A DNA stretch of 64,000 nucleotides from Amoebophrya sp. A120 (taxonomy: Eukaryota; Protista; Dinoflagellata). Of this stretch, positions 7,123 through 52,906 are shown piece by piece. Location: assembly GCA_905178155.1 (NCBI GenBank), contig CAJINV010000001.1:6481860-6545859 (forward strand), written 5' to 3'. The notes below the pieces were generated by a model. The model was not told the DNA's origin. It did no database searches and worked only from the letters and a program-made list of their open reading frames with translations. The number at the start of each line of letters is the position of its first letter. Position 1 is the stretch's first letter. A program made the translations under genes and the position numbers.

Positions 7123-10100
7123 ATGTCCCCTGGCGAAGAGAAGATCCTTGACCTGGAGGCCGGGTCGGATGCTGCCCTCAGCAGCAGCGAGAGCCACGAT
7201 CTGGCAGAGGGTAGTACCATCCTCGCGCGCGTCGAGCAGTCGCCCGGTGTGCAGCGGGGCGTCGGGCGCTTCCAGTTCGAAGCCCAGGGCGCGTTTGGAG
7301 CGCGGCCGTACAACCGAAGGAAACGGAAGGACCGAACTAATGGTGGGGGAGAACAAGGAGAACCCGAGCCCCATCTGTTATGGACGGGAGATGGAGGCGA
7401 TCTGGGCTACATCTCAGATGAATGTGAGGACGGAGGTGGTGGAACAAATAGCCTTGTATCAACACCAAATTGCCGGGCGCTCACCCCTGCGTCCACCTCT
7501 CGTGTGCGAACTCCGTCAACTCTGCCGCAGCCGGCGACGCACGTCATCAATGCGCGCGGACAGGCCTTCGAAGCTGGAGGGGGCGGCTCGTGTCAGCCTA
7601 GTCCGCGGAATAAAGAGCGACTGCCGACGCCGCACCTCACGGTGGAAGGCGAATGCGAGAAGATTGCCAACGTGCTTGCGCACCACTGTGCGCGTGACCG
7701 CCCTTTGGTGATGGATGTGTGGACAGAGGTGATGCTGCGCCTCGGGATCGAATCTTGTCACGAGTACTGCAAACACCGCGTGCGGGTTCTCTGCAAATTC
7801 AGGTACTATTGAAGGAACGTGATTCTCATTCTACTGATTCCGATTCGTTCCGTGATGTGGTCTTTTTCACCTCGACGACCATGATTTCATTTCTTGATAC
7901 TGTTGTGTGTACAATTTTGATTTCCTGAAGCGGAGTACCAGCACTTCTGTATCTGTTCAACAAACTCTTTCAGATTTCTCGTACCGGAAGAAGTTCCAAG
8001 CACCCAGGGTGGCCCCTATTGCTGTAAGCGGAAAGAAGAGGCCTTCCAGTTGAACGTAAACAAGATTCGTCTGGTGGACTGGCAAGAAGAGCTGGATCTT
8101 CTGCGGAGGCACTTTGCGCGCCAGATGCGTGCACGCTCGCACATTCGGTCCTCGGCGACGCATCAGCAATCTACAGGAGGTTCGCAGCGTGGCCTGCAAA
8201 CCGAGTCACCCAGCCTTGCTGTAGTCGTACCCGCCGCCGCGGTAGATAAAAATCATATGCACGACCCCCGGCCGAGGAGCAACAACAGCATTATCAAGGT
8301 CGCGACGACGCCTCTTCTGGACAAAGACATCAATACCGACGAGCAAAACACGACCGAAATAGCGGCGACGACGGGATCCTCGAGTGTGAATCGCATGCAT
8401 GACTCCTCGCTGGATTTCGCAGCCGCGTATCAAACGCAGCCGGGGGAAATCATGCGCCTCGGCGAGACGTTCGCTTTGCGGGCCCACGGGTCGCGCGTCG
8501 CCTGCTTCCGTGCTCGGTTCAATCCGTTTTACCGGACCATGGGCGACTCCGGGAAGGTACGGGTGGGCGGCTGCTGCTTCCTGTGGATCCTCGCCTGGTT
8601 TGCGTGGCAGTTGAGCGTGCTGCTGATCGGCGTCTTAGTTTTTTTCACGGGCATTTTCGCGGGTTCCGTCCCCATCCTAACTTTGGGTGATACAGATGAA
8701 GAGGGCTGCGAGTTCCAGCTCGACGAACTAGACGAAGACGTGGAGGTTGGCGAGTATGAACACGATGAGCCGGCGGAGGAGGATCCGCATTTGCGGGCTG
8801 CGGAGAAACTTTCCGTCGCAAAACGGAAGCTGCACAAGGGCAACAGAAGGCGTGAGCAAAGTACTTATCCTGCTCAGGAAGAAGAGCTGCAGGAAGTTTC
8901 CAGTGACAACCCGTGCAGCAGCAGCAGCAGCAGCAGCTTTGACGAGCGGGAGGCACTGAAGCGCTCATCGGGTGATTTTTTGCCTTCTTCGCGCTGTCGC
9001 AGAAGAAACAGCAACACTTCTTCGACCTTCAGCAGAAATAACCTCGTGTCAACATGCAGCAGACACTTCTCGTCGCGTGGGATGAACAAAAGTTCATCGT
9101 CGAAGAAGATGACCAGTAAGGACCACGAAACCTACGAAGAGATTCTCGAAGAACGACACTACTCCGCGACCACAAACACGGTCACCTCATCAACAAAGCG
9201 GATCAGAGTCGCGCTGAACGCACTGCCTGATTTGGAAAACCCCAACGCCCCGGCAGACTGCTCGGGAGACGAGCTGGACTACAGTACAGGTGGCAACTCG
9301 AAGATGCAGAAGCACCACTTGGACAAAAATGGGCAGCACGACAGCCCGTCTAGAAGTTGTATTGCGAAAGAGCACGACGAAAACAAGGTTACAAAACTTG
9401 GAAGACCGGTTCTCTACGGGCACGTGTACCAGATGCGGATTCGGGCGAACGTGCAAGACATTTTTCGCCAAGACCTGTTGCTCGTGATCTTCACATCCGC
9501 GGTACACAAGAGCGGCCCGGTCCGCTTTGGCGACGACATTCATGTGCTTTCCACGCCGGTGCAGGGCCTCTGCCGGTGCTGCGCCTCGGGCCCGCGGCGC
9601 ATTATGCTGCCGGACGAGGAGGAGTGCGCGATTGCGGGGGAGCAATACCGGTTGCGCCCCTCCTACGGAGTTACCTCGTACTATGGGGCGGGCGAGAAAA
9701 GCGACAACGTTGTTCTGTCACTCAAAAACTCGCCGCACGATATTGCGGCATTAAGTGCCGTGAAGCGGGGGGTGTCCTCTACGCCAGGCAGTGCTTACAA
9801 GGACCCAGTTTTGCTGACAGCGACACCGAGAAACATCAGTACTGCAACGAATAGTGCCAACAAAGCCGCGAATCCGCAGAGCGTGGATATTCTTCCGGGC
9901 AGCACGACATCTTCTGGTGCAGGTGCGATATCTACCACTACGACAAGCAACGGCGAAGTACATCCTGCGGCAGTTTCTGTCTCTGCTATGAAACCTTCAT
10001 CAACTTCGACGGTCGACGGCCAGACCGATGATCGACAACGGTTCACGTCCTGCTCTACCAGGCCGAGCGCCGACTGGCGCTCTTCGCCCCAAAGCTCGTC

Positions 10101-12426
10101 TTTCTCCGCCAGCGGGTACAAAAGGATCAACAGCTTCAACAACGACGCCTTGCGCGAAACACCGGATTTCGTGCCTGACAACAGCAGCATCGCAGCGAAC
10201 TCGGGTCGTGGAGTGCCCTTCTACTCCCAGTTGCCAGGCCAAGATATTAGCCATCGTGAAACGTCCGGCGAAAAGAACAAGATTACGAACAATCACGAAG
10301 AATCTACTTCCGTACAAAACCTACAAACCCGTCCACACACGAACTCCACCCGGTACACCAATCGCGAACTGGATCACCCCACGCACGACACCAGCGAAAC
10401 TGAGTCGGAGCAGCCGCTCCCGGAGCTCCCGCGTCTCGTCCCGCACCAGCGGCTCCTCCACGGTGATGCGTTCATGCCCTGGACTGCCGCGAAACGGCAG
10501 ATGCACCTAATCGACACCCGAACGTTTCTGGCCGCGGTCAATTCCGCGCACCATGTGAAGAGCATTTTCACGATTGAGCACGCCGATCTGGAGAAGCACG
10601 CTCTGATTCAGCTCGGACAAAACTCCAGCTTTCCCACCATGTCCACGTATGAAGCGGAGGACCGATTCAGCAATAGTCCCCCGTCGTTCCGGGCAGTCAC
10701 TGATACAGCAAATGTCGGCGCGGAAGAGAATAGTACGATGCGTGTTGAACAAGGCCCAAAAATGAACGCAGAGCCACTACCAGCAGCACTTGGGACGACG
10801 CCGGACCTTGTGTTGATCGCTGAAGTAGATGGTTTTACTTCCGGTGCGCCCTCTAACTGTGGTCCCGCAGGACCAAAGAACAACGTGTATGAGGATATCG
10901 ACTTTCTACACGAACACGAGGACAAAGCGCCAGCAAATAGTGGCGAAGGTGATCAAATTATTCCAGACTTGAACAACGTATCCGACAACTCTGTTCTTTC
11001 CGGCATTCTGGAGAGGAACGCCCGCAGCCTGTCGACGCCGACGGCGACGCACCTAAATCTCGCCCTGAATGGCAGCGGTCGAGATCTGTCACCTGTGTCT
11101 TCCCTCGGTTCTCCGCCTGAGAAGAACGGGACGAAGAACAACAAGTGCGTCAGACTTACCGAAGGGTCCCCGTCCTCACAGGTGGGCCATGTGAAGAAAA
11201 CTACCGGTTTGCAAGAGAACGATGCGGCTGGTGGAACGACAAAATCTTCGAAGTTCCTGAGAAAAAGCAACACCATGGCGACCCTTCTACCTTCCAGGAA
11301 TTGTGATCTCGCCGAGCAGCACACCCGGCTCGCCGACCCAAACGACGGCCGCTTATTGGCTATGAAGAACAAAAAGGACCCATCTGTCGTGCCGTTTCAG
11401 CTTCTGGCTTACAACATTTGGATGATGCCCTCACTGATCACTGACGTGGCGCCGAAATCGTGGAACTTGTCCCCCGTGAAGCCGGACCGGGCGATCCGCA
11501 TCCCCGAGGCGATTTTCAGCTGCAAAAAGCTCCAACGGCTCGACGTGATCGTGTTCTGCGAGGCCTTTTGCGAAGAGACCATGCCGCTGATCTCGAGCCG
11601 CCTGCGGGAACGGGGGTTTCTCTACGACACCATTCCGCCCGTGCTGGGCCGGAGGTTCATTAGTTCGGGGATTAAGGTCTATTCCCGCCACAGAATCGAG
11701 GAAACTGCCTCGGAAATCTACGACAAGTGCAGCGGCGACGAGCGGTTGGCCGCCAAGGGCTGCACCTACGTGATGGTCCGGAAAAACGGGCTGCGCATCC
11801 ACATTTTCGCGACGCATCTGCAAGCGTGGGACGGCGAGCAGGCGCAAAGAGACCGGCGGTCGCAATTGCGGCAGATTAGGAGTTTCGTTGCTAAGCGGAA
11901 CATTCCCCCGAATGAGCCCGTTATCCTCACCGGCGACTTCAACATCGAGGCCGACAGCCAGTCAGCCGAGTACCAAACCATGCTGCGAATCCTCTCCGCG
12001 GAAAACTACGACATCGAGCTGAAGGACCCGTCGGTTTTGGCGTCCAACCAGTGGTGCGAGTTCGGCTCCGTTTCGAGCTCCCCGGCCGAAAGTCTATTGC
12101 TGGACTACGTGTTCGTTGAAAACAACCACCTGCTGCCAAAGTCCGCAAAAGTTACGACCGAATACCTTCAAAGCTTCAAACCCTTCATCTACCGCGACCG
12201 CCACTTTAACGACCTCTCTGATCATTACCCCGTCTTCGGCGACTTCATATTCGAACGAAAAATGCTACGACCTGCCCCATTAGTAGTACCCAAAAATCTT
12301 CATCTTCAGGATACAAATAGCCCCCGGCATAATTCTCAATTTCGACGACCCAACGGAGATGACCAGACGCCGAAAGGAGCGACAGGTGCGAGTCCTTGTC
12401 TGAGTCCGACATCAACTGTTACGTAA
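7123..12426 (+). CDS. Large (~1710 aa) protein with one TM segment and a C-terminal EEP-family neutral sphingomyelinase-like phosphodiesterase domain; exons 7123-7802, 7974-12426
   Basis: EEP motifs YNIWM, DVIVFCEAF, SSGIKVYSRH, LAAKG, HIFATHLQA, VILTGDFNI, LLDYVF and LSDHYPV (about 11390-12260). TM at about 8575-8670. GT-AG intron 7803-7973 joins the two ORFs in frame. The stop overlaps a GTAAGT donor-like site, so the 3' end could extend. Confidence 0.85.
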
Positions 12427-35992: not shown

Positions 35993-37176
35993 AATGTAAT
36001 TTTGCGATATTCCATTGCGGGTGATACAACATATGAACTTCATCAATTTTTCGCAAATGAGTCCACTCATGATTCGCATCACCCGGCCGCAAATAATCTG
36101 CTGTAAGCGTATTGCACTCTGCTACATGCACAGAAATAATAAAGCGCTAACGCACTAGAATGACGTCATGACTATCGTCTCATCTCTGTTTCAGGTCTGC
36201 GAATCCCAAGGGATGTGTCCCCTGCTTGCCTGGAAGCGGGAGGTCGAGCCGCAAGAGTAGTGGAGACGGTGCCGCCGCAAGAATGTAAGTAAGAAGTTTT
36301 CACCTCCGGCGCAATGAAGGCGACCAAGTAGAAGTAAGCAGTAGTCACCCTCCACTCTTCGTCTTCACCGCAGCCAAGGCGAAGTTTCTCCGTCACCATG
36401 TTCGTGGTGTGGCTGGCGTGTGGTCTCACTTATCACCTACAAGCAACATCACCTGATGCTAATAATTCCAAATCCGGAATTACCGACACCACGATTCATC
36501 AATTTCCGCCTGAGAAAGATCTTCTTGCGTGTATCACCCGTAGTTCTTCATATCAAAAAACCGACAAGATAGACATAGACTTGCGGTTGAAGTCGAACAA
36601 TTTTTCATACAGCAATAAAAACGGCACAGCAATACTGGTCACAAGAGGCAGGAAGGACCGCGCATCAGACAAAGAAACTTGTTGTTCTAGTCCTTGGGCG
36701 CCGGCGGATGTTGGACAGAGAAACATACTCAAGTTACAACGCCTCAAGCGTAGTGAAGACGTGATGCGGCCTGGCCGTGTCACTCGATAGAGCAGCTGGC
36801 TCCTCCCACGTCCTACGAGGAGAGACGCGCGATTCATTTTTCGTGTCATTGATTGAGAGAAGGTGTTATTCTCGGGAGCGACTAATGTAATTTTTCACCA
36901 CGAGGAAAGACAACGCCGGGCGGTTACATTTTTTCCAGGCAGACGAGGAGGCTGCTTTTTTCAGCAGCGTCGCGGGGACGGGTGTCCCCATACCCTGGGT
37001 TCTCGGGGGTAGAGTGCGTCTCCTGTTTGAGCGTAAGTGAGGGCTTCGTAACGCTCTCCCGTGCTTTCAGGGGCCGGCTCCTCGCTGTTCTCGTTTTCGT
37101 TGGTTTATTTCGTAGATACAGCAGGGCCTGCTGTTGTGCCGAGGTCTAAAGGTTCGTTGGTTGCGGCAAAATAAAC

Positions 37177-40147
37177 ATGCCGACGCTCCCGACCTTCAAC
37201 TTGCCTCAGCTGCCGAATAAGCTGTTTGGCGTGCGCATCGACACCCTGCTTGCCTACGAGACGCCAAAGATAGTTTTACTCCGCAACCCGCAACTGGGCG
37301 CTTGCTATTTCTTCCTCGCCGTTGCCGCTTTTTGCTACATTGTCCTGTACCAGATCCTGTATCACAACGAGCACTTCCAGCTCTTTGACGTGGAGGGGAA
37401 AGTGCGCGCGACGCTACAGGAGCCGACGAAAAACGGCTGCAACCCAAATGACCCTGATTGTGCCGACAGTTTTGCACACTTGAAGGATTTACCGTATTGC
37501 AAGGCAAGTTCGTCCTCACCGAACGAGGATGCAAAAGAGGATGAACAAACGGGTAGCGCACCGGGGGTTCCGCCGGCGGTGCAGATGTTGTCGCGAAGAT
37601 CACGGCTATCATTCGGGCAGGCAGCCGCCGCAGCAGTGCCAGCGAAAAATATCACGCAGCAGGAGTGCATCTACCGTGACCAGCGCGAGATGGTCCCGTC
37701 GTACGCGACGGGTGATACCCTCTTCATCCCCACCTGGATCGAGTTTCGCACCGAAGAGGCCAGCTGCAAGCACACGGCTGACGCAGGGGACTGCACTAAG
37801 CTGCACACACTGACAAAGAAGCCGGAGGAGAAGTACGTGGCGGACGTCGAGGATTTTACCGTGTTAGTCGCGCACACCTACTACCGAGAAAACCCAGCGA
37901 ACCCGGCGGAGCACCTCGCGGGGAACAACGAAAGACACCAGGGGCTAGTCGAAATGTGTGTGGACGAGCGGTCCGTGAGCGCCGATCCAACCCTGGAGGC
38001 GGTCGAGGAAATCAGCAAAATGTCGAAAAAGATGCTGGAAACCATGATCGCGCCCTTCAACGTCGCGCACGAATGTCCCCCGCCGCTTGTGAAAAAGGTG
38101 AGTGTTACTTTCCCATGAATGTTTTGGTTGCACTTCAAACTACGAACCTAGCGAGTAGAAGTTTGAGCAAATGTCACAACCTTCTACCTCTGTCTTCATA
38201 TTCCTAGTATCCCGACTAAAAACACTGCAGCGCGTCCCCCTCCCCTGCATTCGTCCCGGTGCCTGTCGGTTCCGCGACGCCTACGCGGGCCAGTATGAAG
38301 AGCACTCCGCGATTGGAGACAACAAGCCGCGGGAAGTCGTCACGCAAGTTCCCACACCGGAAAAATCGATTTACAAATCCAGTGCCGAATTTTTGCAACT
38401 TTTGAGACAGCGGGTACGACGATGGGTAAGTTTCATCCAGCACGGTGTGGATTTCAGTGATCCCTGGACACGCAGGTACATGGAGGTGCTGCAGCAAGAG
38501 CACGAGGAAAGGGTGATACGACAGAAGGCGGAGACTGCGGAAAAAGATGTCGCCGTGAGCTTTCTGCAAATCGAATCTTCTGGAGGAGGTTCTGAGCCAC
38601 GTACCAAAAATGCTGCGGCTTTGCAACTACATAATTCCGATCATCAGGGTGAAACACAAAGCAAAGAACCGCAAAGCCAAGGGCTCGGATCTGCAGCATC
38701 GGCATTTCAGCGTGCGCGTCGCAGGCATTTTTTGAGCCATGTATTGGGGAAAGCAAAAACCGTACAAGCGAAGCTTGCAGCGCCGCGACAAAAAAGCACA
38801 AGAAACGCAAAGACAAAGAGGGTCAGGGGGATGGTTAAGCAGCACGAAGACCACGAAACACGCGACCACCTCCACCAGGGCGAGACATTCACAAAGGCGG
38901 TAGCTTCTTCGGTTGAGTCACCCGTCGAGAACAGCAAGGTAAGTGGAGTCATAACTCCCACGACGACTTCTACAGAGAAACAGAGAGCAGCAAGGAAGCA
39001 GAAGAGAATGCGTGGTCACCGCCACGGTCGTCGGGTTCGAAGATGGATCCTTCCTGCAGTCCGAGGGCGACATAAAGGCATAAGTCCGGCGACTACATCC
39101 CCGGCGAGTAGCAGGAAAAGGAAATGGGAAGGCAGTAAAGACAACAAGAAAAACAAACAGCCGAACATTTTTGATCCGGAAAATAAGGGAGTTGCGTCGA
39201 CACACACGTCGGCGCTGGCACCTTTTGGTCAGACGGTCTCTCCTCTTCAAAGTGCTACGCCGCAGACGCCAGCAGCCAAACACAACAAAAGTAAAGCGTC
39301 TCAAGGAAAAATAACGCATCAAGCAACCGCAGAGCGCCACAGAAGTGTCCGACCGCCTTCAAAGAAGAACCCGAACTACGTCGAAATCAACTTGCAAAAC
39401 TACGACAAGGCGGCTGTCCTCGGTGCTGCCACAAAACAAGACCCCACGTCCTCCACAATCTCCACACCTATGGTATCTGAACCAAAAACAAAAAGTCCAA
39501 ATTCACTTGATGCAGATGATGAGAAATCGTTGAAGCCAAAGCGGGATATGTACGCTTTGAAGAACGGGGACGTGTTCAGTGTGAGCAGACTTCTCGCAAT
39601 CGCCGGCGTGCAGCTCGACCGCCAGAAAAACGCGGATGACGAGGTGAAGCGACGAGCGGGGACCTTACTCGAAGTCGTTGTCGAGTACAGGAATCTGTAC
39701 CCGTTCTACTCCACCTTTCACCCAAAGCCAGAAGATAGCGCCATCGAGTACTGCTACAGAATAGTAGAACGGCCGGTGTCCGAATTTAAGGCGGAGATCT
39801 ACTCCGAGAAGCAACCGGACGACTTTCCGAAAACTAGGCTGATCGAGAACCAGCACGGCATCTACTTGGTGTTCCGCGTCGGGGGGTCGTTTGGCTTTCT
39901 CAACTTCATCTACGTTCTAGTGATGCTGACGACTTCGTTTCTGCTGCTCGCAGGGGCGCGCGCGGCGTTGGATATACTCGCGATCTATTTTCTGCCGGAG
40001 AGAGAAATGTACAAAGCGGCAAAGTACGAGACAGCGGAAGTTCCGTCATTGCACAAGTACCAGGAAAGAGACGGTGAGGCAGCTGCAGGTGTAGCAGGAG
40101 CTGTGCAGGAAGGTGGTGGGAGTGCTGTTGGCACAAGAGGAAGATGA
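37177..40147 (+). CDS. P2X receptor-like ATP-gated ion channel (~945 aa) with a very large ectodomain insertion; exons 37177-38097, 38231-40147
   Basis: N-terminal YETPK (YxTxK motif), TM1, DVEDFTVLV, NGDVFSVSRLL..AG, HGIYLVFRVGGSFG, TM2 with conserved Asp (ALDILAIY), C-terminal YKAAK (YxxxK). GT-AG intron 38098-38230. Confidence 0.88.
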
Positions 40148-41244
40148 CGCGAAGATAGCATACAAAAAAATCAAGACACAAAGCCTTTGCGGGCAGAAGA
40201 TCAAAGCCAGAGGAAGCACCACCGAGCAACCCGGAGGAAATACGTCCCTGACGTGCGAACAAAACCTGATGAAGACTGATGGGTCCTCGTAGTCCGGCAC
40301 CGAAGAAGTGGGGAAGATCGGAGTAAATGGAAATACCTCCCGCCACCTGTCGATTGCTGTGCTAATCAAGCGAAGTTTCGTTGACAGCGATAACAAAAGG
40401 TTGACGTAGAGGTGACGAATGAACGATGAATGTCGTAGCGACTCACTTGTTCAGTTTTTTTTTTTCCGCAACGATGCAGCCACTTCTTTTTTCACGACTA
40501 AAAAAACGCCTCCCAAATAAAAAGTCACAGCTTACGAAGAAAAATCAGCTAGATCATTTCTAGCGACATGGCAGCATTCTCTAAAACCGCACGACTATGT
40601 GTGTTCAAGTTCTGTAATACGATGGAGGGCTTCGTCTGAGAGCTCGCAGTCGGTCGCGCGAAGGAGGATGCCAGTCACCTCCTTGCGCTACTTTTTTGAA
40701 GTTGTGCTCTCACGTTTTTATTCTCACGAGTGTCCTCTTCCTGTTCCGGTTTAGCCCGAAGCCGAAACAAATTTGGCCCGAGAAGATAAAACTTTTGCTC
40801 TGAGCGATAGATGGGAAAAGAAGGGACAAAAACAGGACCTGAGTGACAGGGTCAGTCTGCTGGGCTTACTTCTCTGAGTACTACTTTCTCTTTCCCGGCA
40901 TTGTTGCTCTTTTTCATTCCAGATCATATCTCTGAAATTCGTTTACAGGTCCAGACAAGTATCTATGCTGGTCGTTTTGATGCCATACAGGAACGATCTA
41001 CATTGGTTCGTATTGTTCGAAGTCGTGTATGATATTCCACTTTTAGACACTTACTTTAGTTTTATTCCTAGTGGAAGTTAGTAGCTGCAAAGAAATGCGC
41101 AGCGTACAGGGCTTTTCAAGAAGCGTCAGCTTCATTCTTTTATAACCCTGAGTAGTATCCGTTTACGTTGACCATTACACACCCTATCCTTACCCGTCCC
41201 GCAGAAGCCCCGCTTCGTTTGAGTTTTCCTTCAATTGTTTCAAA

Positions 41245-44200
41245 ATGCAGGACTTTCGCGAGTTCAAAGACGTGAAGGATTTCCTGAAAGGAGACAAGTC
41301 ACTGATCCCGGACGACGTGACGACCGTGCTGCTCGGCGAGTGTACGCACGGGACGCAGGAATTCTACGAGCTGCGAGCGGAAATCACCAAGTATCTGATT
41401 GAGTTCCGGAAGTTCACCTGTGTGCTATGCGAGTCGGACTGGACGTTTATGTGGCACGTGAACGGGTATGTGCACCGAAAAAAGGCCAATATGTACCCGG
41501 ACAAGATGCGGTTTCCCGACTGGATGTGGAAAAACGCGCCCTTTCACGACCTGGTAGAGTGGATGCGGCAGCGGGCCAGCAGCGACGGGCCGCATCTGTT
41601 TGGGTTGGACTGCTACTGCCGAGAGGAGAGCAAAGACGAGTGCGTAAAATTTTTCGACTTCCACGACCGGGACGGGCTGGGAAAGGATTTCCGCAAAACG
41701 TTGTATCCCCGAGAGAGGCCGGAGCTGTGGCCAGAGATTCTGTCAAAACTGCAGTGGGAAATTACAGAAGACGACAAGAAGAACAAGATTTTGCAGTCCA
41801 GCCTGTCTAGGAAAGGAAGCAAAAGTAGTATCCTTGTTTTGATGCTGAGGTCGCGAACGCGATCGCGTTTGCGAAACTTTCGTCTGCAGCGATTTAGATT
41901 TTTTCAGATTCTTGTTTGTTCCATAGCAAGGACGCTCATCAGTTGTGTGTGTGTCTGTGTGCTGCTAAGAATAAGTACTTTTCAAACGTCATACTTAAAC
42001 ACTTTCAGTGTTCGGTGAGCGCACCACGGCAGATGGGTCACGTGGCGGCGTTCTGCTTTCCAGCTCAAAATTCCGCGGGTGTTCGAAACTCGATCAGTTC
42101 AATGCCGAGCAAAATCTCGAGTGCATGATTGCCGCCGACGAATACTACTCGAAGCAGCGACTGGAGCCGCCCGGCAGCCGGGCAAGCTGGAACGCACGAG
42201 ATCAGCACATGATGACCACGATTATGCGACTAAAGGCGAATAGCAAGGAGCTCTTTGGCATTGAAGAGAAGGACCTGAAGATCATCATCTGGGCGCATAA
42301 TTCGCACGTGGGCGATGCGACGGCCACGCCGATGGGCGGCGAGGACTTTCTCAGAAACGAAAAGTGGAACTTAGGGCAGATGTGCAGGAGCACCTTGGAT
42401 AAGGTGTTCATTACCGGGTTCTACTCACACCACGGCACCGTTCGCGCGGCTGAGCGCTGGGGCGGGAAGGGCCAGGTGATGCAGTTGCAGAACGCCCTGC
42501 CGGCCAGTCTCGAAGCCTGCCTGCATAGCCGCTTCCCGAACAAAAGCGCGTGCTTCGCAGTGGGGAAGTACTTCACGAAGAAAGCGGACCACGCAAATAA
42601 AGCGAAAAAGGACACCGGCAAGAAGGGCTTGCTTGGCGGCCTGTTCGGACGCTCGCGGACCAGCAGGTCGCTCGGAGACTTGGAGGAAGACAATGCCGAA
42701 GAACTTCTACAGGGTGCGGATTATGCGCCAGGAGAGCTGCAGGTCCCGTATCGGTGCCTACACACGGAAGTGTACGCCACGCCGGACGTAAATCCACCGA
42801 TGCGAGGCGAGGACAGCAGCGCCGGCACGAAAAGAAGAAAACTTGACCCAAGCGTGCCATTCGTCGGCGTGCAAAGGTATTTCTATTTTTTAAGCAGCGG
42901 GCGTTGTGCTCATAAACTCTAACTCTCATTGGCGATTGTTGCTTTTGATTTTTTCACTCACTTCGGGTTCGGATTGAAATTGATAAACTCGAATCTTCTT
43001 TGAATTTGAAAGCCCTCCGCGGACGCGTAATAAATTCAATCAAAGCTTTATTTCTCTTCAGGCAAACCGTTGAGCAGCGCACCCTCGCGCAAGTCCGGTT
43101 ACAGATCGAAAACTACAAGACGGACCCGACTTTGAACGGCTGGTGGGTCACCGAGGCCTACGATTCCTCGGTAACCGGTGTGAAGAACCAGGTGCAGTGC
43201 CTGCCGGTTTCCACACTCGAGAAATTGGAGGGGAAGAGTGTAGACGTACAGTCCGCGATGCTGCTCGCCAACCACCCGATTTTGCAGCGGTGGGTGGGCG
43301 TGCAGTACCACCCCGAGACCGAGTACCAGTCCCACTACGGGGAGATGCGCGTCGGCAAGTGCTACGACCTGATCGTGTTTTGCGACAAGAGCCAAGCGCT
43401 GTCGATCGACATCAGCGCACGGCCCAAGGTCGCGGATCAGCTGGTCGTGGAGGAGATGCAACAGGAGACTTCTAAAACGTCTGGTGGACGAGAAGTACAA
43501 CAAGTACCGCAGCCCCAGCAGACACAAGAAGGCAAGATGGAAAAAGCAACTTCCGCCCTCAGCAACAGCTCGACCTCGACCGCCGCATCCTCGTCCTCCT
43601 CTAGCACAAAAAATAACGCGAACCAGAACCCGGAGCTGGCGAAAATTCAAACGAAGGTCGCGGGTGCAGCCGGGGAAGTGTCTAAAAACGTCGCCGCCCA
43701 GCCTGTCAACAAGCGGCTGCTGACGGAATTCCGGCGCATCCTGAGGACCCCGATCGAGTTCATCGAGGCAAGGCCCCTGGAGACAAATCTGCTCGAGTGG
43801 CATTTCGTCATAACCGGGACGCAGGACCCGTACGTTGGCGGGAAATACCACGGAATTTTGGAGTTTCCGGACGATTTCCCGATGAAGCCCCCGTCGATCA
43901 AGATGCTGACGCCCAGTGGCCGGTTTGAAATCAACAAGCGCATCTGCCTCTCCATGTCTGACTTCCACAAGGAAAGCTGGAACCCGGCGTGGACGATCGA
44001 GAAAATTCTGATCGGCCTGATGAGCTACATGTACGAAGAAAACAACGAGTCCGTCGGATCTTTATTAGAGTCGAAGGAGGACCGGCGGAAGTACGCGCAA
44101 GCGTCCAGCTACTTCAACGCGCAAAATGAGATTTACGTGGAACTATTTCACTCCGTGGAGGAGGAAGAGCAGCAACAGGCGGTCGCGGATTTGAAGAAGC

Positions 44201-45345
44201 GGTGGCGGTGCGGCTCGGACGAGAAGGACCACGATGAGCCGGAAAAGGTGTGCCGGTACTGCCTGGTGGACACGGGCGAACTGGTAAACCCCTGCTCCTG
44301 TCGCGGCAGCTCCCAGTGGGTCCACAAGCAGTGCCTGCGGCAGTGGCAGCGGTCGGTCCTGGTCACGCAGAGCACGCACCCTCGGTACCAGACCCGGATC
44401 GACGAAATCTGCAACATCTGCGACAAGCCGTTCAAGCCGGAGTTCAAGGCGCCGTCGCGGCGGGACACGATCTTGGAATACACGGGGGAGGACATTCCGC
44501 AGCTGATTCAGAAGGGGAACCTGCTGGTGTCCAGCCGGCCCAAGTCCGAGAAGAACTGGGAGATCATTTCGAAGCACAAGGACATCGCGGACAAGCTGCT
44601 GCATTTCACGGAGTCCGTTTACTTCATCAGCCTCTGCGAGCCCTACAACCCGAACAAGCGCGGCGGCGGCGCGCTACTCGCGGTGAACACGGCGAACAAC
44701 CGCATCGTTAAGGAACCCCCAGATTCCGTCAGTCGTGCGCTGCCCGGCGACCGGTACGAGTTCTTCGTGTCGCCGAAGCGGACCTGGAACGAATCCTTTG
44801 CGGCGCTTGTGAAAACAATGCAGGACGCCGGGGTGTTGCAAGCAGGGAAAAATGGCGTCGAACACCGGATCGGCGGCCCCGTGGAGCCCGCCGAGGCGTT
44901 TGCGCTCGTCGATCTGCCGATGCTGAACGCGCCGGACAAGCTGTCGGGCAAGTCCGCCACTTCTTTGGAAGAGCAGAAGAAGAAGAACCGAACCATCCTG
45001 CAGCTCGCCAGCACCGACCCGGTGACGTGGCAGCAGGCCCAGAAGCTGCGGATAAAGAATTCTGTGTTCTTCGGAAATTTGGAAACCATTCTGGCGGTGA
45101 TCGCGTCGCTTTACAGCTGTGCGGAGACCGCGAACAGTGTCGCGAATATTCCGGTAAAGGTGTTCTGGGGCTACGCCAGCTGGAACGCCACACAGCTGCT
45201 CGGGGAAATAGCCAGGCGCAGCTGGGGACTGGTGGTCAGTGACAGCGACCTGTCCTTTGACAAGTACGGCAAATGCCTTGGCGAGTGGGAAGATCTCGTC
45301 GATAACTCCGTGGTTGCCAAGGAAAGCGAGTACGCCGCGTTCTGA
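41245..45345 (+). CDS. Multidomain fusion: erythromycin-esterase-like (EreA/TIKI fold) + Ubc6/UBE2J-type E2 + RING-CH (RINGv) + AlgH/DUF179-like; ~1218 aa; exons 41245-~41804, 42064-42876, 43062-45345
   Basis: Ere motifs LLGECTHG, ESDW, FPDWMWKN, GLDCY, SWNARDQHM, WAHNSHVGDA and VGVQYHPETEYQSHY. E2 motifs PMKPPSIKMLTPSGRF..NKRICLSMSDFHKESWNPAW. RING-CH CRYC..PCSCRGS..WVHKQCL..CNIC. AlgH motifs FTESVYFI, GGPV and VFWGYASW...QL.GEI.RRSW. The Ere C-terminus, E2, RING and AlgH are all in one uninterrupted ORF. Confidence 0.88.
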
Positions 45346-46505
45346 GCGAGGACCCGCGCCAGCCGATTTTCATTGTAGCGAGCTGGACAATGTTTGTTTG
45401 ACAGTCTCGCGCACTAAAGAAGCTACCCAAGATTTTGCGCGCGAGTAGGAACACTGGTTGCAGGCACCTGCTCGAGCTGAAAGTCCTCATTTAGTGTCTT
45501 TTCCCTAGCTCCTGGCACTGCTATCTACCCGCAATTTCATTTTTGCCCCTTCTGTCACATACACAACACATCTGAGTGCTTTGTGTCGCCCCACCTGCTC
45601 TGCATTTCACTGCGTCATCGTCAATTGCGGCGTCTATTATTAACAGGAAGCTGCTATAATGTGTCGTGTGACAATTGTTTTGTTTGTTCCACAATTGTGT
45701 TACTCCTGCTTCACTACGACGACCGGTTTAAAAATACTACCTCGACCGTCGCATTTGTCCCGCCCCCGCCCGCCACAACACCCACCAACTGCTACGCAGG
45801 TAGTACTTCGTTGCTGCTACAGACGCACACAGAGACTGAGGAAGAATAAGAAACCCTCCACCTTCTACTTCTAGATATTATTGACAAGGATCCCACTTGT
45901 TTTTGCAGTCTGATTGCAGCTAGAGCTACGGAAGTGAGTACACATCCGGACAAAGACGCTCACTGTCACTTGAGAACGAGATCAAATGATTGAAAAAACA
46001 TAAACAATATTGAAGATCTACCACTAGCACCCGCAGACAGAGTCAGAGGCATCTCCTTCTGCCCTGCTCCTCCGCTGCATTGCCAGGCGCTCCGCATGAG
46101 CCTACTGACTATCCACTTCACGGTGCTCTTTTCTTCACGCGATTGTTTACCGCCAGGAGATGATCATGTTCCGACACCGGCTTGAATCTCTGTATATCTG
46201 ACCTAATGCTAATCGTGCTTAAGAGCCACGACCTGGTGTGTAATTTCTTCCTCTTCGTTATGTGCAGGTTACGTTTTTCTTTTTTTTTTCCTCAGGTTGG
46301 TGTCATGATGGCAGACCCAGAAGCTACACGTCAACAATTTCTCACAAGCGTTTCGTGTAGTTGTGTCGTCCCGTGTTAAAGTAAGGATTTCACGTATCTG
46401 ATTTTCGATGTAAGGGAACGGGAAGTAGAGCTAGAGTAACGTTAAAGTTGTAGAAAAAGCAAAGCAAACAAATTTTCACTGCATGGCGAAACATCGATCT
46501 TGAAA

Positions 46506-48017
46506 ATGAATTTCACCTTTACCAAAGAGGATGACCCGGTGTGTTTCGCCGCCGAGGGGACCTGTCCCATCTGCTTCGATATGATTCAGGGAGACGCGAT
46601 CGAAACGATCTGTTGCGGGAAGCTTCTCTGTACCGGGTGTAGTGAGAAATGCGGGCAAAGGGCCACTTGCTTCAATTGCCGGGCTCCTGTGGCGACGACG
46701 GCGGGCGAATTTGAGCTGTCGGGGTTCTTTGGGTTCCAGAAGAATCATTTCGCGACGCGCATGTTGCAACAGGAAGAAGTGAAATGCACCTGGTGCGGAC
46801 ATAGGGGCACCCTGCAAAAGATGTCCTGCAGCGGGCACATCAGCGAAAAACACTACCGGTTCTGCCAGGCTCCCTGTCCGAAGATGATTCGAAAGTGTCC
46901 CCACGCCGGTTGCGAGTATGAGGGTGAGCTTTCGGCACTGAAACAGCACCTCGCCTGCGACTGCGAGAAAGGCTACCGAATGCTGGACCAGGAGGCGCTG
47001 GACATGTGCGGCGGAATCGAGGGCTTGGAGCGGCAAGTGAAACAGATACACACGCTGCTGGTCACCTTAAAGCCCCCGGTTCCGCCGGATGCCTTCGCCC
47101 TCACGTTGAGTCACTACGACACGAAAATCACGTCGAGCACGTTTGCCCGGATGTTTCAGGGCCGGAATTTCTTCAAAAAGCCGGCGACGAACTACTTTGT
47201 AGAGCTCGACGAGCAACATACCAGTAGTTCAGCGCAGAGCTGTTTCGTGCCTTCGTGTAAAGAGCTGGTCGACCTCAATCGCCTGCTCGATCCCGTCTTC
47301 ATGTATGCTCCCCTCGGCGACGATCGACCCGACGGTCCCCGGTTGCCGAAACTTTTGCGACAAGGGTACGAGCAGGTCGTGCGGTTGTTTGTGGTGGACG
47401 ACTACAATTGTGACATTCCCCTGCATATGCATTGCAAATATGTCTGGGTCTGGAGAAGTGCAACTTGTCATGCGAAGTCTCGATCGCAAAAAAATTTGTG
47501 TTGCATGAACGCCAAAAGTTGCCCACTTGTTTCTAAGCAAAAGGCGAATTTCTCATGCGGAGCAGGCATCAAGAAAGTCGCGCAAAATTTGTGATGCTTC
47601 TGTGTGCATTCCAGACCATCTGCCTGGTCCGTGAGATGCATGACAAATCTTGCATTCTTCCAGACCCAGACACATTTGCAATGCATACTGCACGAGGAGG
47701 CATTCTTTCAGCCGACCGAGAAGCGGCCATCCCCGGAGACTGCCCAGTTGCTCTACAAGCCCGGGGAGCCGGGACCCTCGCAAGCCATCGCGGATCTTCT
47801 CGGACACGGTCGCAAACGGAAGCAATCCGGAGAAATGGGTCTCACGCTGGCAATCGCGGCCTGGCACGAGGTGTTTGCGCCACAACCAGTTGCGTCGCTG
47901 GCACTGGCGGATGATGACACGGATGAGAAACGTAGTCGGCTCCGGGCACGTAGCTGTCGAAGGTCCCGGCAGCGAAGAAGCCGGACGCCTCCGGTCAGAA
48001 ACAGAGGCGCCGACTGA
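46506..48017 (+). CDS. RING + TRAF/SINA-type zinc-finger protein (putative E3 ligase); 5' end uncertain, with a possible upstream exon near 46305; interrupted by an introner
   Basis: CPIC..CCGKLLCTGC..CFNCR RING-like motif and KCPHAGCEY....LKQHL.CDC TRAF-like fingers. The frame continues PLH|EEAFFQ after 47426-47692 is removed. Confidence 0.75.
47426..47687. mobile_element. Introner-type non-canonical intron, TATGC family
   Basis: About 50-bp inverted repeat (tatgcattgcaaatatgtctgggtctgga...), perfect TSD CTGCA. Removal of 267 nt is in frame. No GT/GC-AG register exists across the repeat. Confidence 0.9.
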
Positions 48018-49160
48018 ACCACAATGATAAACACCCGAAGCCGTCGGAGTTGAAATTAATACGTAGAAATACTTCGTTCCTCTGTTGAGTAGCTGAAATA
48101 GGTTTTCTCCTAATTTTATTTCTACTCTGCCGAATGCAAGAAAGATCAGACAAAAGCAAAAGGAAAAGACATACTGGCGGTCTTCCTCTTATATGAATAC
48201 AGAAACTTCCGAAGTAGAAGGAAGATGAGAAGCGCGCAGCATGCTGGACGACAGCCCAATGTACAGTTTCTACGGAAACCTAGACTTTTCTGAACATGAG
48301 CAGTTCAATTTCAGGCTGTGTCTTACGTCACAGGAGAGCGAGGGTACGAACGGATGTGATGACGAGTGTGTGTGTGTGTGAGATCAAGTTCATGTGAGAT
48401 CAATCTGATAACTTCTCTACGCCGGTGATGTGGTGTGTAGTGAATGGATTGAACGAAAGAAAAAGTAAATGATTTCGCTCTCAAGCTGAAAAGGCAAAGC
48501 AAGAAAGCTCACGCCGCGATTTTTTACACAGGACCCCCCGTGGACGAAGTTGTTGGCTTTCATTTTGATTTTCCCACCAACAGATTTTTTGAAAGATTAC
48601 GTTCAGCTTTTTTTGGAAAGATCTGCTATTTCCGCGCACCGATCTTTCGTGCGCGACGTTCGCAGGTGCCTTCTTTAGCCGGTCGCTCGCAGCTTCCGCT
48701 TCATTGCATGCCACTGTCGATAGATCAAGTTGAAGTTTATTTTGAACTGCAAAATACCATTGCGATAAGAACAGATACAGAGTCACGATCACCATGATCT
48801 CCACAAGCAGCTTCTTTACAAGATCACTGTTTCCGATTTTCTAGTTTCTTTCTCTTTATTTTCTTTATTTGAACGTAGATGTCAATGAAAATAGAATCAC
48901 TCTCTTTCGGCGTTTTTCCATTGTTACGTCTGGGAGCATCGTGTTGATAAAAGTTCGGGCCAACTTCTAGTATTGCAAATTCTATTCTACTCAAACGAAC
49001 GATTTTTTTCGTTTGCCCGTACTAGTTGATAGTTCTCACTCGTACTCGTGTGTTGTGTTGAATACGCCAACATAACTTGTGTGTCGCTTGTCGCCGTTTT
49101 CAAAACTTCTTCGCGCTCTTCTTTTTTTTTTCTTTAGTCAGAACCCCATTGCGCACGAAA

Positions 49161-52100
49161 ATGCAAGTTCTTCGTTGGTCGTTTTTCACTGCTTCCCTTG
49201 CCGCGGTGGCACAGGAGATGGCTCACGAAGGCGATCCGGTATGTTGGGAAGACGGGATTCCACCAGAATATTGCTGCGGTGACGACTATGGAGACGCAGG
49301 TATGGTCTGCTGTGTGGTTGTATTTTCTCATCTTGTTGTACGATGTTCATCTGCAAAGTTTGACGAGTTTATAAAAAAAAGGCTGCCTCGTCATCGTGTT
49401 TCTTCGGTTTCTTTCGATATGGAAGGAAGGTATTGGCGGGTATTCGTATTTCTTTTTCTTCCTTCAGGTACACCGTCCTGCTGGGTAATGGGTTTCCGGT
49501 ACACGCGGTGCTGCGGCGTGAAGAAGAAGAAGGCATACACCCCGAGCGCGCGGCGCAGCATCAAGCTGTCCAACCCGTGCGACTACATCGTGGTCGGCGC
49601 GGGCTCCGGGGGCGCCACCGTGGCCTCGCGGCTGGAAACCGCGTACCGGGTTTGCCTGGTCGAGCAGAACAACGAGCCAGACAAGTACTGGAGCGAGGGC
49701 CACCCGGTGGGCCCGAAGGAGAAGGACTGGCAGTACAAGTTCGGGCGCGGCGTCGGCGGCAGCACGCTGATCAACAGCGGTGTGTACACGCGCGGGAATT
49801 TGGAGGACTACGCGGAGTGGGGCGGCGAGGAGTACTGGGGCGTGAACCGCACACTGGAGCTGTTCAAGACGCTGGAGCACCCGGCCAGCATCCCTGGCTA
49901 CGAGGTGGACTACGACTACCACCCGTACCGGAAAAACCCCGCGGAAAAGCCGGCACACGCGACACTGGTCTCCTCGGAGAGGCACGAACTGCCGCCGATC
50001 TTCCGGGCGATCGCGGACGCGTGGGAGGAAAACGGCCTGGGCAAGTACCGCGTGGACCCGCACAGCTCGACCGAGATGACGGGGCTCGGCGGCGTGTGGC
50101 GGTGGATGGGCTGCGGCGACGACATGGACGCGGCCTGCACGCCGCAGCGGGTCTCCCGGTGGCGGTACGTGGGCCACGAGCGCAACCATGAGAGCGTGGA
50201 CGTCACACTGACCAAGTATCGTTTTGAAAATTTACCATCTACTCCACCATCCAATAATTTCAATTTGCTGTCATGCGCAACATGTACGTACGGTAACGTA
50301 AGTTCTGTGTTAGTCATGCAAATGGTGGATGAGAATGCGGATGGATGCTAAATTTTCAGACAATACGAAGCCGAAGCTCTACATCGGAAAAGTGACGAAG
50401 GTCCTGATTCAGGACAACGTCGCGCGCGGGGTCGAGTTCATCGACGACCGCGGGCAGAAGCTGCAGCTTATGGCCAAGCGCGAGGTCATTCTGGCTGCCG
50501 GCGTGGCGTACACGTATCAAACAAAAAAGTGTTAACGTTAACGGTTTTCACAAATAGCAGTCACGCATTACAAATTTTGCCTTCCATGCATGCTGCGCAA
50601 TACAAATTTGGGCACTTTTTCTGATGCGTTACTGCATTACAAATTCCGTTAACGTTAACACTTTTTCTTGTGATAACACGCCCAAGATTTTGATGCTCAG
50701 CGGCGTCGGGGACCCGCTCGAGCTGTCGGCGCTGGGGGTCGAGGTGGTCCAGGAGGCGCCGCACGTGGGCCTGCACCTGCAGGACCATTATGGGTTCTCT
50801 TCCACCGTAGAAACGAATCTGAAGTGTCCGAAGGACGCGCACCGCGATGAGCACGGGGTTCCGCGGGGGGGCACGCACCTGGGCTTTTTGAACGACTTTC
50901 TGGCCCAGTTTTACGGGTTCTACAAGCTGCCCGACACCAACGTCTTCTTCGAGATGTTCCTCATCGAGGGCTGCCAGGAGGAAAAATACACGCTCACGTT
51001 CACCGTGCTGTTACTCTCCCCCTCCAACGAAGGACGAATCGTGCTCGACTCCGCGGACCCGGAGGAAAAACCGCGGCTGGCTATCTACCCTCACGTCCAC
51101 GAAGAGGACCTAAACTATCTAAACTACGTATGCCATGAAGAAAGGAGTATGCTTGTCCTGTGAGTTTATTGCTTAGACGCTTAAGAAAAAATGCATGATC
51201 GATGAACGACCTCAAGTTACAAGGAAGAGGAAGCTCATACATGTGTTACGTCCTTTGCTTGTATCATCATCTGCACGATTGGCACCACGGAGATGTTGCG
51301 CACTTTCGCTTCCTCAATGTTAATGCTTCTGCTAGAAAAAGAAAGTAGAGCGGGCAAGCAGAGTTCGTTTTTTTCTTTGGCATACTGTGCTTTGCGCATC
51401 TTGTACGTGAAAATATTCCCCGCGTTGCGCCAGTGGGACGCCCGTATTAGCCCCGACGTGAGTGTGATGTCAGACGAGACAAAGGCCAAAGCGTAAGCTT
51501 TCTTTCTCACCTTTTCACTGAGACGACGCACTGAGTTTGTAAGTGTGTACGAATGAAGACCACGAAGAGCTCCAGTACTTAACTTGAAAACATTGAATCT
51601 CAAACACACTCGCACCCACAGGTGGATCAAGGAGAATCTGTACTATTATTCGCACCCAACCGGCACGGTGAAACTGCACGCCCAGGATCCTGATGGCAGC
51701 GTGCTGAACCCGGATCTGACCGTGAAGGGCGTGCAGAACCTGCGCGTCTGCGACGCGTCGGTGTTTGGAAAAGCGCCGATCGGGCATTCCGACGGTCCCA
51801 CGCGGATGATCGGGGCCAATTGCGCGAAAATCATCATGGACAAAGACAGAGCAAACATGCCGGTCATCGGGTACTTATCGCGTTTTTCTCGTAGCTGCTG
51901 CTGCGTCGGACGTTTTTGCTGGCACACCGGCTGCACTTTGATAGCCAACTACGCAGTCAAATTTCTCTGCAGATACGAGTAGAAAGAGAGACACAGCCCC
52001 GTACTACACTTCTTGTTCTTACATAAATTTTCACTAAATAAACCCAGGTATGGTACGAACAACGAGCTGAAAGCTTTTCACATTTCGTATTTCCTCACTG

Positions 52101-52906
52101 CTGGCGGGCGGCTGATCGACACCGCGATTACCTATAACAACCAGGAGATCGTCGCCGCCGGGATCGGTCAGAGCAAAGTACCGAGAGAAGAAGTTTTTCT
52201 GGTGACCAAGGTCGGCCCGGACATGTTTGACGACACCTACCAGGCCATTAAGGACGACCTCGCGAAGTGGAAGGGCAAAACCAAGCACGGCGACATTGCG
52301 CGCGTGACCTATTTCGACCTCGTCCTCCTGCACTGGCCCAACCTGTACTCGACCGACCTGAAGGCCCCTAAGTGCGCGTCGGAGCCGGAGGGGTGGGTGG
52401 GGTGCCGCAAGCTGGCGTGGCAGGGGCTGGAGAAGTTGGTGGCCGAGGGGATCACGCGCTTCATCGGCGTGTCCAACTTTGACGTGAAGCACCTGGAACC
52501 GTTGCTGGACTGGGACCAGCGGAAGTACCCGATCTACGCGAACCAAATCGAGTTCGGCATGTTCCGGACCCACGCTTGGGACACGGTCAAGACCTACTGC
52601 GACCAGAAGGGGATCCGGGTTATGGCCTACGGCGTCATCGGCGGCTTAAAACGAGAAATGCTGATCGACCACGACCTCGTCAAGGCCGCAGCAGAGAACC
52701 GCACCGCAGAAAGCGCCATGTTCCAGTGGGCGTTAAATGAGGGCGTCACGGTGCTCCAGGGCAGCAAGAAGAAAAAGCACATGGATCAGTTCCTGGCACT
52801 GGCACCCACCCAAGAGAAGGTGATAAAAACTGACATTCCAATGGACGAGCGGACCAAGTGCTACGAACCCGACGTATCAACGAAAAAATCTTCTGCATCA
52901 CTGTGA
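49161..52906 (+). CDS. Signal peptide + Cys-rich module + GMC oxidoreductase + aldo-keto reductase fusion, ~896 aa; exons 49161-49299, 49468-50216, 50371-50514, 50681-51128, 51390-51492, 51622-51870, 52048-52906
   Basis: GMC motifs [24 protein letters not shown], spliced AAGVAYT|[23 protein letters not shown] and LRVCDAS. AKR motifs spliced MPVIG|YGT, IDTA..Y, VTKV, LLHWP, IGVSNF and NQIE. The exon sum of 2691 nt is a multiple of 3. Confidence 0.88.
50217..50365. mobile_element. Introner-type non-canonical intron in the GMC-AKR gene
   Basis: IR tatcgttttgaaaattt vs aaattttcagacaata, direct repeat CCAAG/CGAAG. Removal of 154 nt gives LTK|PKLYIGKV in the required frame. Confidence 0.8.
50515..50675. 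mobile_element. Introner-type non-canonical intron in the GMC-AKR gene
   Basis: 30-bp IR tatcaaacaaaaaagtgttaacgttaacgg, perfect TSD ACACG. Removal of 166 nt rebuilds the GMC motif AG..xTPxILMLSG. Confidence 0.93.
51129..51384. mobile_element. Introner-type non-canonical intron (degenerate) in the GMC-AKR gene
   Basis: IR tatgccatgaagaaa vs ttttctttggcata, direct repeat CTACG/CTGTG (2 mismatches). Removal of 261 nt is in frame. Confidence 0.7.

Follow-up and report, generated by a model that had tools for sequence, protein, structure and literature searches.

The gene described here, from the dinoflagellate Amoebophrya sp. A120, encodes in one polypeptide an Ere-like (erythromycin-esterase-like) hydrolase domain, a ubiquitin-conjugating enzyme (E2) of the Ubc6/UBE2J2 (J2) type, a RING-CH domain of the kind found in ubiquitin ligases (E3) and a DUF179 (YqgE/AlgH-like) domain. 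It lies on the + strand of a 64,000-nt stretch of contig CAJINV010000001.1 (the window, to which all positions refer), and all parts of the gene given below are on that strand. From a start ATG at 41245, three exons join into a 3732-nt coding sequence (CDS) with a single stop, for a protein of 1243 aa. Rather than a single gene, the architecture represents a conserved family, and it is apparently an undescribed, conserved variant of the E2-E3 hybrids, built from known parts. Our favoured, still tentative, reading is that the protein would act as a self-contained soluble E2-E3 ligase whose clients are marked for degradation and also processed by the hydrolase.

A preliminary description, made from this DNA alone, had claimed these four domains in this order on one chain, with the end of the esterase, the E2, the RING and DUF179 in one stop-free exon. 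Profile searches bear this out. Pfam recovers Ere in each of the exons (E 2e-17, 5e-34 and 8e-5) and, on exon 3, UQ_con (E 4e-18), RINGv (E 1e-8) and DUF179 (E 9e-9); predicted folds agree with the domain order. Exon 3 (43062-45345) translates without a stop through the Ere C-terminus, a linker, the E2, the RING-CH and DUF179 up to its TGA, and the E2 and RING are 32 residues apart. The low-complexity linker (43390-43710, ~105 aa) is the place where giant-virus forms are split into two genes. A FliF match on this linker (E 0.08) is weak and was put down to composition.

The rest of the hydrolase is encoded upstream. Exon 1 (41245-41824) holds its N-terminal part, with E32 and H35 (in 41335-41349) and E63 (41431-41433), and exon 2 (42009-42876) holds its core, with a family loop, EPxGS, from 42164, R257 (42197-42199) and H290 (42296-42298). 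The two introns, both GT..AG, are near-equal in length: 184 nt for intron 1 (41825-42008; contig joint 41824>42009) and 185 nt for intron 2 (42877-43061; joint in contigs of runs X1 and X4). In run X1, one 4532-nt contig across 40952-45852 skips both, and the CDS keeps its single stop, which confirms the earlier proposal that two compatible introns join the remainder of the esterase domain. The protein length then given, 1218 aa, falls 25 residues short of the spliced product. The same contig covers a 5ʹ leader (40952-41244), which has an in-frame stop at 41149 and four upstream ATGs opening short open reading frames (ORFs) of 5-38 codons, and a 3ʹ untranslated stretch (45346-45852). The run X4 contig has the joint of intron 2 only; in run X5, possibly the origin of this DNA, the stretch is present in one piece, unspliced; and the raw-read run X9 gave two reads. 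No sequencing run recorded as RNA contains the gene stretch; the RNA label of X1 is a program's guess, and we take X1 as RNA because its contig skips at GT..AG ends.

Could the gene be an artefact, that is, a mis-assembly or a model that joins two genes? In favour of this, the splicing evidence consists of assembled contigs, and both joints appear in only one of the four runs compared; a contig by itself is no proof of a single molecule. Against it, parts of all four domains sit in a single exon, and the same order is found in 40 independent protein clusters, several of them named complete transcript ORFs. Because homologues share the architecture, we regard this explanation as already refuted and its probability as negligible.

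The E2 domain (43711-44193) is complete and, as had been proposed, of the J2 type: its PDB profile scores 222 bits, versus at most 72 for other E2s, and its fold matches UBE2J2 with Z 20.5 and a root-mean-square deviation (rmsd) of 1.8 over 141 residues. A GRF loop (G769, R770) replaces the HPN motif, which occurs nowhere in the protein. The catalytic C778 (43945-43947), S780 and H785 (43966-43968) line up with the Cys, Ser89 and His94 of Ubc6. With near-duplicates counted, the Cys, the His94-equivalent and the G and R of the GRF loop are kept in 94/94 rows, and the Ser89-equivalent in 91/94. According to a study of J2 enzymes, hydroxyl ubiquitination is determined by the GRF loop, Ser89 and His94, with His94 as the general base for serine attack (PMC11649903). 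The idea that this E2 forms ester-linked ubiquitin on Ser/Thr gains support because the equivalents of all three are present, and the activity itself is predicted from these residues. The Thr-flap (E119, T121 and T122) is altered: the protein encoded in the window has a flap of similar length and keeps GS, but has Ser/Val at 121/122. Across the family, Ser or Ala stands at the Thr121-equivalent position in 42 of the 44 fused rows and Thr in none of them, whereas Thr is kept in 46 of the 50 rows without Ere.

The RING (44251-44421) is a C4HC3 RING-CH, as first described, with all eight zinc ligands kept (C880, C883, C894, C896, H904, C907, C933 and C936). It carries a family-specific W-Q...Q-x-T-H-P insert (THP at 44374-44382), whose residues W911, Q912, Q919, T921, H922 and P923 are kept in 117-118 of 118 rows. 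Among solved structures the Doa10 RING matches best (E 2e-5), and the QxTHP insert is missing from the Doa10 RING alignment. With this insert, the RING belongs to a RING-CH subfamily of its own, and nothing found here supports for it the cognate Doa10/MARCH6 pairing that the preliminary description had carried over. A tree of RING-DUF179 sequences (109 rows) contains a 17-row clade that has these two domains without a J2 E2; the clade includes a choanoflagellate protein, and one member is fused to a different kind of E2. The lack of the J2 E2 and the one fusion to another E2 suggest that RING and DUF179 together form an E3 module. Proteins with RING-CH(QxTHP) and DUF179 but neither Ere nor a J2 E2 make up a wider eukaryotic family (P0032-P0037, P0161, P0163 and P0165-P0173); going by a motif, the E2 of P0035 looks UBE2Z/BIRC6-like.

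The DUF179 domain (44470-45312) has insertions, a GGP motif at 44872 and a GYASW motif at 45169. It scores 35.9 bits with PF02622 (gathering score 27), and its fold matches 2gs5, which we take to be a DUF179/YqgE/AlgH member, with Z 9.7 and rmsd 4.2 over 172 aligned residues. There are weak sequence matches to 2ew0 and to 2gzo, the latter named UPF0301, and GGP is kept in 115/115 rows. The NCBIfam equivalog cut-off for YqgE/AlgH is missed by the homologue P0005 (21.7 versus 225 bits). The suggestion that this domain recruits substrate draws indirect support from two papers that tie the family to AAA+ proteolysis: the action of E. coli YqgE depends on Lon, with Lon epistatic to YqgE (PMC11634777), and Arabidopsis DUF179-3 was enriched 4.6-fold in a CLPC1 trap (PMC8889267).

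The active-site motifs of the hydrolase had been called intact, and the catalytic residues are unsubstituted across relatives. E32, H35, E63, H290 and R257 correspond to E47, H50, E78, H289 and R261, the residues given as catalytic in EreC (PMC7979712); the mapping is by spacing, motif and alignment with BcR136, and for R257 by motif alone. The spacing of 3 and 28 residues is the same as in solved members, and the catalytic positions show no substitution in 55 family rows, save 2-3 end gaps. The Ere fold is taken from a model of the homologue P0005 (mean predicted local distance difference test score, pLDDT, 81.9), not from the window's own Ere. Its Ere matches BcR136 (2qgm) over both lobes with Z 34.9, rmsd 2.7 and 344 aligned residues, and the model also matches EreC (Z 29.0), UBE2J2 (Z 21.6) and 2gs5 (Z 12.1). 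Inside the Ere domain lies a beta-rich insert of ~100 residues (42734-43218, residues ~436-535), split by intron 2 and present in a subset of relatives; its best PDB match has E 1.0, it shares no Pfam family, and it has no usable Atlas match. Its fold gives a mere impression of being SH3-like. An identity as a macrolide-resistance esterase (EreA-D) was rejected: a viral Ere scores 35.6 against the 750-bit NCBIfam cut-off, and P0005 has no Ere match at 1e-3.

Ubc6/UBE2J2 enzymes end in a C-terminal tail anchor, and MARCH/Doa10 ligases have transmembrane (TM) helices after the RING. As had been stated, neither is found in the window protein by a 19-residue hydropathy scan, because the top value of any window is 1.55; the E2, moreover, is internal in the chain. 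The protein is therefore predicted to be soluble. In 8 of 41 four-domain rows a single hydropathy window, far along the chain, reaches 1.8 or more; that of the modelled homologue lies on a DUF179 helix. Pfam detected neither a ubiquitin-binding domain nor a PCMT domain (as in protein isoaspartyl methyltransferase, PIMT) in the window exons or in 30 aligned members, and no PCMT domain lies near 15 viral-type loci.

Three protein searches gave 37, 72 and 59 matches. All four Pfam families are present in 19 of the 37 proteins of the first search. With profiles from the family alignment, applied to 146 rows (the window protein and 145 others, excluding 28 cluster members, P0089-P0116), all four domains are found in 41, always in the same order, and 33 of these have most of Ere. 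Named sources are Effrenium, Symbiodinium, Gymnodinium smaydae, three Amoebophrya strains and the choanoflagellate Didymoeca costata, whose record is truncated within Ere. The nearest relative is P0038 of Amoebophrya sp. A25 (E2 91% and RING 85% identical), a strain that has two versions (P0024 and P0038); E2 identity within dinoflagellates is 84-91%. The architecture had been thought undescribed. In the open-access literature, judged by titles and abstract openings, we found no description of the four-domain protein and no paper linking erythromycin esterase with ubiquitin-conjugating enzymes or UBE2J2 with dinoflagellates; subscription papers lay outside this search. In databases, however, the architecture is shared by 40 other clusters and is already labelled automatically: some JGI records bear names of the type esterase-like/ubiquitin ligase/AlgH, and a Symbiodinium record is annotated only as Ube2j2.

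The same parts occur as two genes in giant viruses. An intronless related Ere gene is found at 15 loci, on eight contigs of giant-virus metagenome-assembled genomes and seven low-GC metagenome contigs. At 8 of the 15, a gene for E2-RINGv-DUF179 (475-504 aa) follows on the same strand, 31-1890 nt away. A search from the E2 side gave 33 viral loci, of which five have the full module, all five with Ere upstream on the same strand; these are the same contigs as found from the Ere side. None of the 28 lone-E2 viral loci has Ere. The pair of Ere and module occurs in four contexts that have no other common neighbour (L001; L002 and L009; L005, L006 and L007; L013). An Atlas cluster of the three-domain protein has 121 members and is assigned to Nucleocytoviricota (score 0.87, a lead only), and 39 of 41 three-domain proteins that start with E2 have AT-rich-type composition. 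Phages gave no match. Elsewhere, the Ere gene belongs to a conserved block in a giant-virus group (L003, L004, L012 and L015), with Rpb2 near it in L003 and L004 and no module in the stretch, and the 28 viral loci L091-L118 have J-like E2 genes without RING, DUF179 or Ere nearby. Two fused forms, P0045 and P0140, fall within the main clade of fused proteins. P0045, which lies on a 38-kb contig and is of AT-rich type, could represent the fused gene as carried by a virus, as judged by amino-acid composition alone; scans of viral contigs with the single proteins P0045 and P0150 found nothing.

In a tree of 121 Ere rows, for which every second bacterial locus was kept, a long branch (Shimodaira-Hasegawa-like approximate likelihood-ratio test, SH-aLRT, 100) divides the protist and viral forms from 66 others, almost all of them of bacterial type. 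The RING-DUF179 tree has the same main groups, and both place P0059 with the split viral forms. All 37 fused rows of the E2 tree fall within one starred set of 41, on few columns. A single clade of all fused Ere is weakly rejected by an approximately unbiased (AU) test (p 0.031); the test used a subset of 55 rows that includes a long branch, and the group was named after the tree was viewed. The bacterial relatives of Ere are ~31% identical. Among the best 80 matches kept from each of a metagenome and a genome scan, a fused PIMT is found at 26 of 73 metagenome loci versus 6 of 80 genome loci. A phosphoribosyltransferase (PRTase) is fused at 11 and near at 31 of the genome loci (42/80), and a PRTase-type neighbour family is present at 24 of the 73 metagenome loci. 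E2 or RING is found at none of the 80 genome loci. These loci (L016-L088 and L119-L198) represent a large uncharacterised family of bacterial Ere-like proteins that are fused to, or encoded beside, PIMT, PRTase and a dienelactone-type hydrolase and are sometimes near baeRF12.

How might the protein work? E1 would load ubiquitin onto C778, as in the E2 family, and the adjoining RING-CH would activate the charged E2, in cis or across a dimer. A client would be brought in by DUF179, packed directly behind the RING, and ubiquitin would pass to Ser/Thr, other hydroxyls and Lys by means of H785, S780 and the GRF loop. We consider this core ligase, from E1 loading to hydroxyl or Lys transfer, to be probable. 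The hydrolase would activate water through E32, H35, E63, H290 and R257 and cut a putative ester or amide, carried by the client itself or by a client adduct and most plausibly related to damage or stress, thereby creating or clearing a mark read by the ligase half. The role of the hydrolase is the weak step of this mechanism. Two reasons lead us to favour its action on the client of the ligase: its active site has not changed relative to bacterial kin near which neither E2 nor RING occurs, and the two halves remain together when split. Several observations weigh against this reading. Seven of the 15 viral-type Ere loci have no adjacent module, three of them with 4-8 kb downstream. The matching trees are no sign of co-evolution, because adjacent genes are inherited together. 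The link to PIMT varies by sample, with PRTase dominating the genome loci, and the links of DUF179 to proteases are indirect, having been made in other branches of the DUF179 family. The altered Thr-flap suggests that serine selectivity may be weaker in the fused forms. Two further points, L010, which is syntenic with L002 upstream yet has no module directly downstream, and the RING-DUF179 clade without Ere, in which the ligase part is evidently not always in need of a hydrolase, also speak for a looser association.

That association would be a passenger fusion, in which ligase and Ere do unrelated jobs, were transferred as neighbours and then fused. It would also account for the Ere-only viral group beside Rpb2 and for the Ere-E2 linker, which varies from 12 to 103 aa across the family and is modelled at low confidence. 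However, the pair persists in four viral contexts whose other neighbours differ, and the fused form, with intact sites, extends from dinoflagellates to the choanoflagellate record; the weak AU result against a single fused-Ere clade would mean repeated fusion or fission. We regard unrelated jobs as unlikely, though worth serious weight. The hydrolase could instead remove what the E2 writes, hydrolysing oxyester ubiquitin and so keeping the enzyme from ubiquitinating itself, or editing chains. The preliminary description had offered such editing as one role for Ere and the sensing of a ligand as another, and the tests made here support neither. In favour of an eraser, the residues needed to form oxyesters are present in the E2, Ere enzymes are esterases, the related RRSP fold cuts proteins (PMC7979712 and PMC6254334), and Ubc6 is unstable and self-ubiquitinates (PMC11649903). 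Yet the catalytic set is equally invariant in 102 bacterial-type rows, whose kin lack E2 and RING at the genome loci; Pfam offers no ubiquitin-binding domain; and the family loop is also present in Ere-only viral forms. An eraser of the ligase's own product is rather improbable.

A role in conflict is, in our judgement, slightly more improbable again. Here a non-protein or invader hydroxyl would be ubiquitinated once the hydrolase exposes it, and viruses would keep the module against host defences or metabolism. The 121-member giant-virus cluster, the patchy distribution and the extra invariant histidine in the RING insert fit this idea, and the J2 paper notes that other enzymes use such histidines for hydroxyl ubiquitination of non-proteins (PMC11649903). 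The high conservation of the dinoflagellate E2 is unlike that of a fast-evolving arms-race gene, and the viral neighbour genes are mostly metabolic or housekeeping. The boldest reading, by analogy with PCMTD1, is a cytosolic repair-or-destroy machine, in which Ere would open or cut damaged residues of the isoaspartyl ester or succinimide type and clients left unfixed would be ester-ubiquitinated by the same chain. In such a scheme a bacterial repair hydrolase and a bacterial protease adaptor would have been wired to a detached E2/RING of the endoplasmic reticulum (ER) type, and giant viruses would carry and exchange the two-gene cassette. We think this reading rather improbable too. If true, it would give the large orphan Ere-like family and DUF179 their first biochemical role.

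Known systems resemble the protein in part. The Ubc6/UBE2J2 and Doa10/MARCH6 pair of ER-associated degradation has the GRF, Cys, Ser89 and His94 equivalents and the nearest RING-CH, that of Doa10; it differs in that the present protein is one chain with no tail anchor or ligase helices, an altered Thr-flap, a QxTHP insert and two added bacterial-type domains. UBE2O and BIRC6, whose UBC domains turn up among the fold matches, are soluble E2-E3 hybrids with an E2 and substrate-recruiting parts in one polypeptide. The present protein likewise combines these on one soluble chain, but with another E2 class, a true RING-CH, DUF179 and a hydrolase, so that only the UBC fold is common. With the Ere/TIKI superfamily (EreC, BcR135/136, RRSP) it shares the fold (Z 29-35, homologue model) and the Glu/His/Glu/His/Arg set. 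Its Ere, in contrast, is 12-17% identical to solved members and far under the NCBIfam Ere cut-offs, and its closest bacterial kin are the uncharacterised Ere-like proteins to which PRTase or PIMT is fused or beside which it is encoded. YqgE/AlgH (DUF179) proteins share a Pfam match above the gathering score, the 2gs5 fold (Z 9.7-12.1) and GGP, whereas the present domain has large insertions, is fused behind a RING and is far below the equivalog cut-off. PCMTD1 is a cullin-RING ligase component that recognises isoaspartate (PMC12590147). It, too, ties a repair-associated domain to a ubiquitin ligase, as an analogy only; the present protein has no methyltransferase domain, replaces the cullin by an E2 and a RING of its own, and has a hydrolase that looks active.

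Every part of the protein is known and automatic annotation already groups them, which tempers its novelty. Nonetheless, it offers a naturally soluble (predicted) single-chain pair of J2-type E2 and RING-CH, for which no membrane reconstitution would be needed. The 2024 paper on J2 E2s calls for a J2-Ub-RING structure and treats non-protein substrates as an open question (PMC11649903). The protein also connects ubiquitin with two widespread domains whose functions are unknown, Ere-like hydrolases and DUF179, and so opens their roles to testing. It represents an apparently undescribed ubiquitin module common to marine protists and giant viruses.

The gene has neighbours on both sides. Just upstream is a P2X-receptor-like gene (37150-40147, +), with a weak Pfam match in its first ORF (E 8e-5), a long low-complexity insertion in its second, and a 3ʹ end under separate contigs that end at 40465. 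Downstream, a Cys/His-rich ORF (46446-47594, +) looks, by eye, like a RING with a TRAF-type zinc finger, and has no Pfam match at 1e-3. Other matches in the window are to exo/endo/phosphatase (7921-12423), GMC oxidoreductase (49062-50348) and aldo-keto reductase (51983-52903). Of the stop-free frames of at least 300 aa in the window, 19 of 20 are on the + strand, and the exception shadows exon 3.

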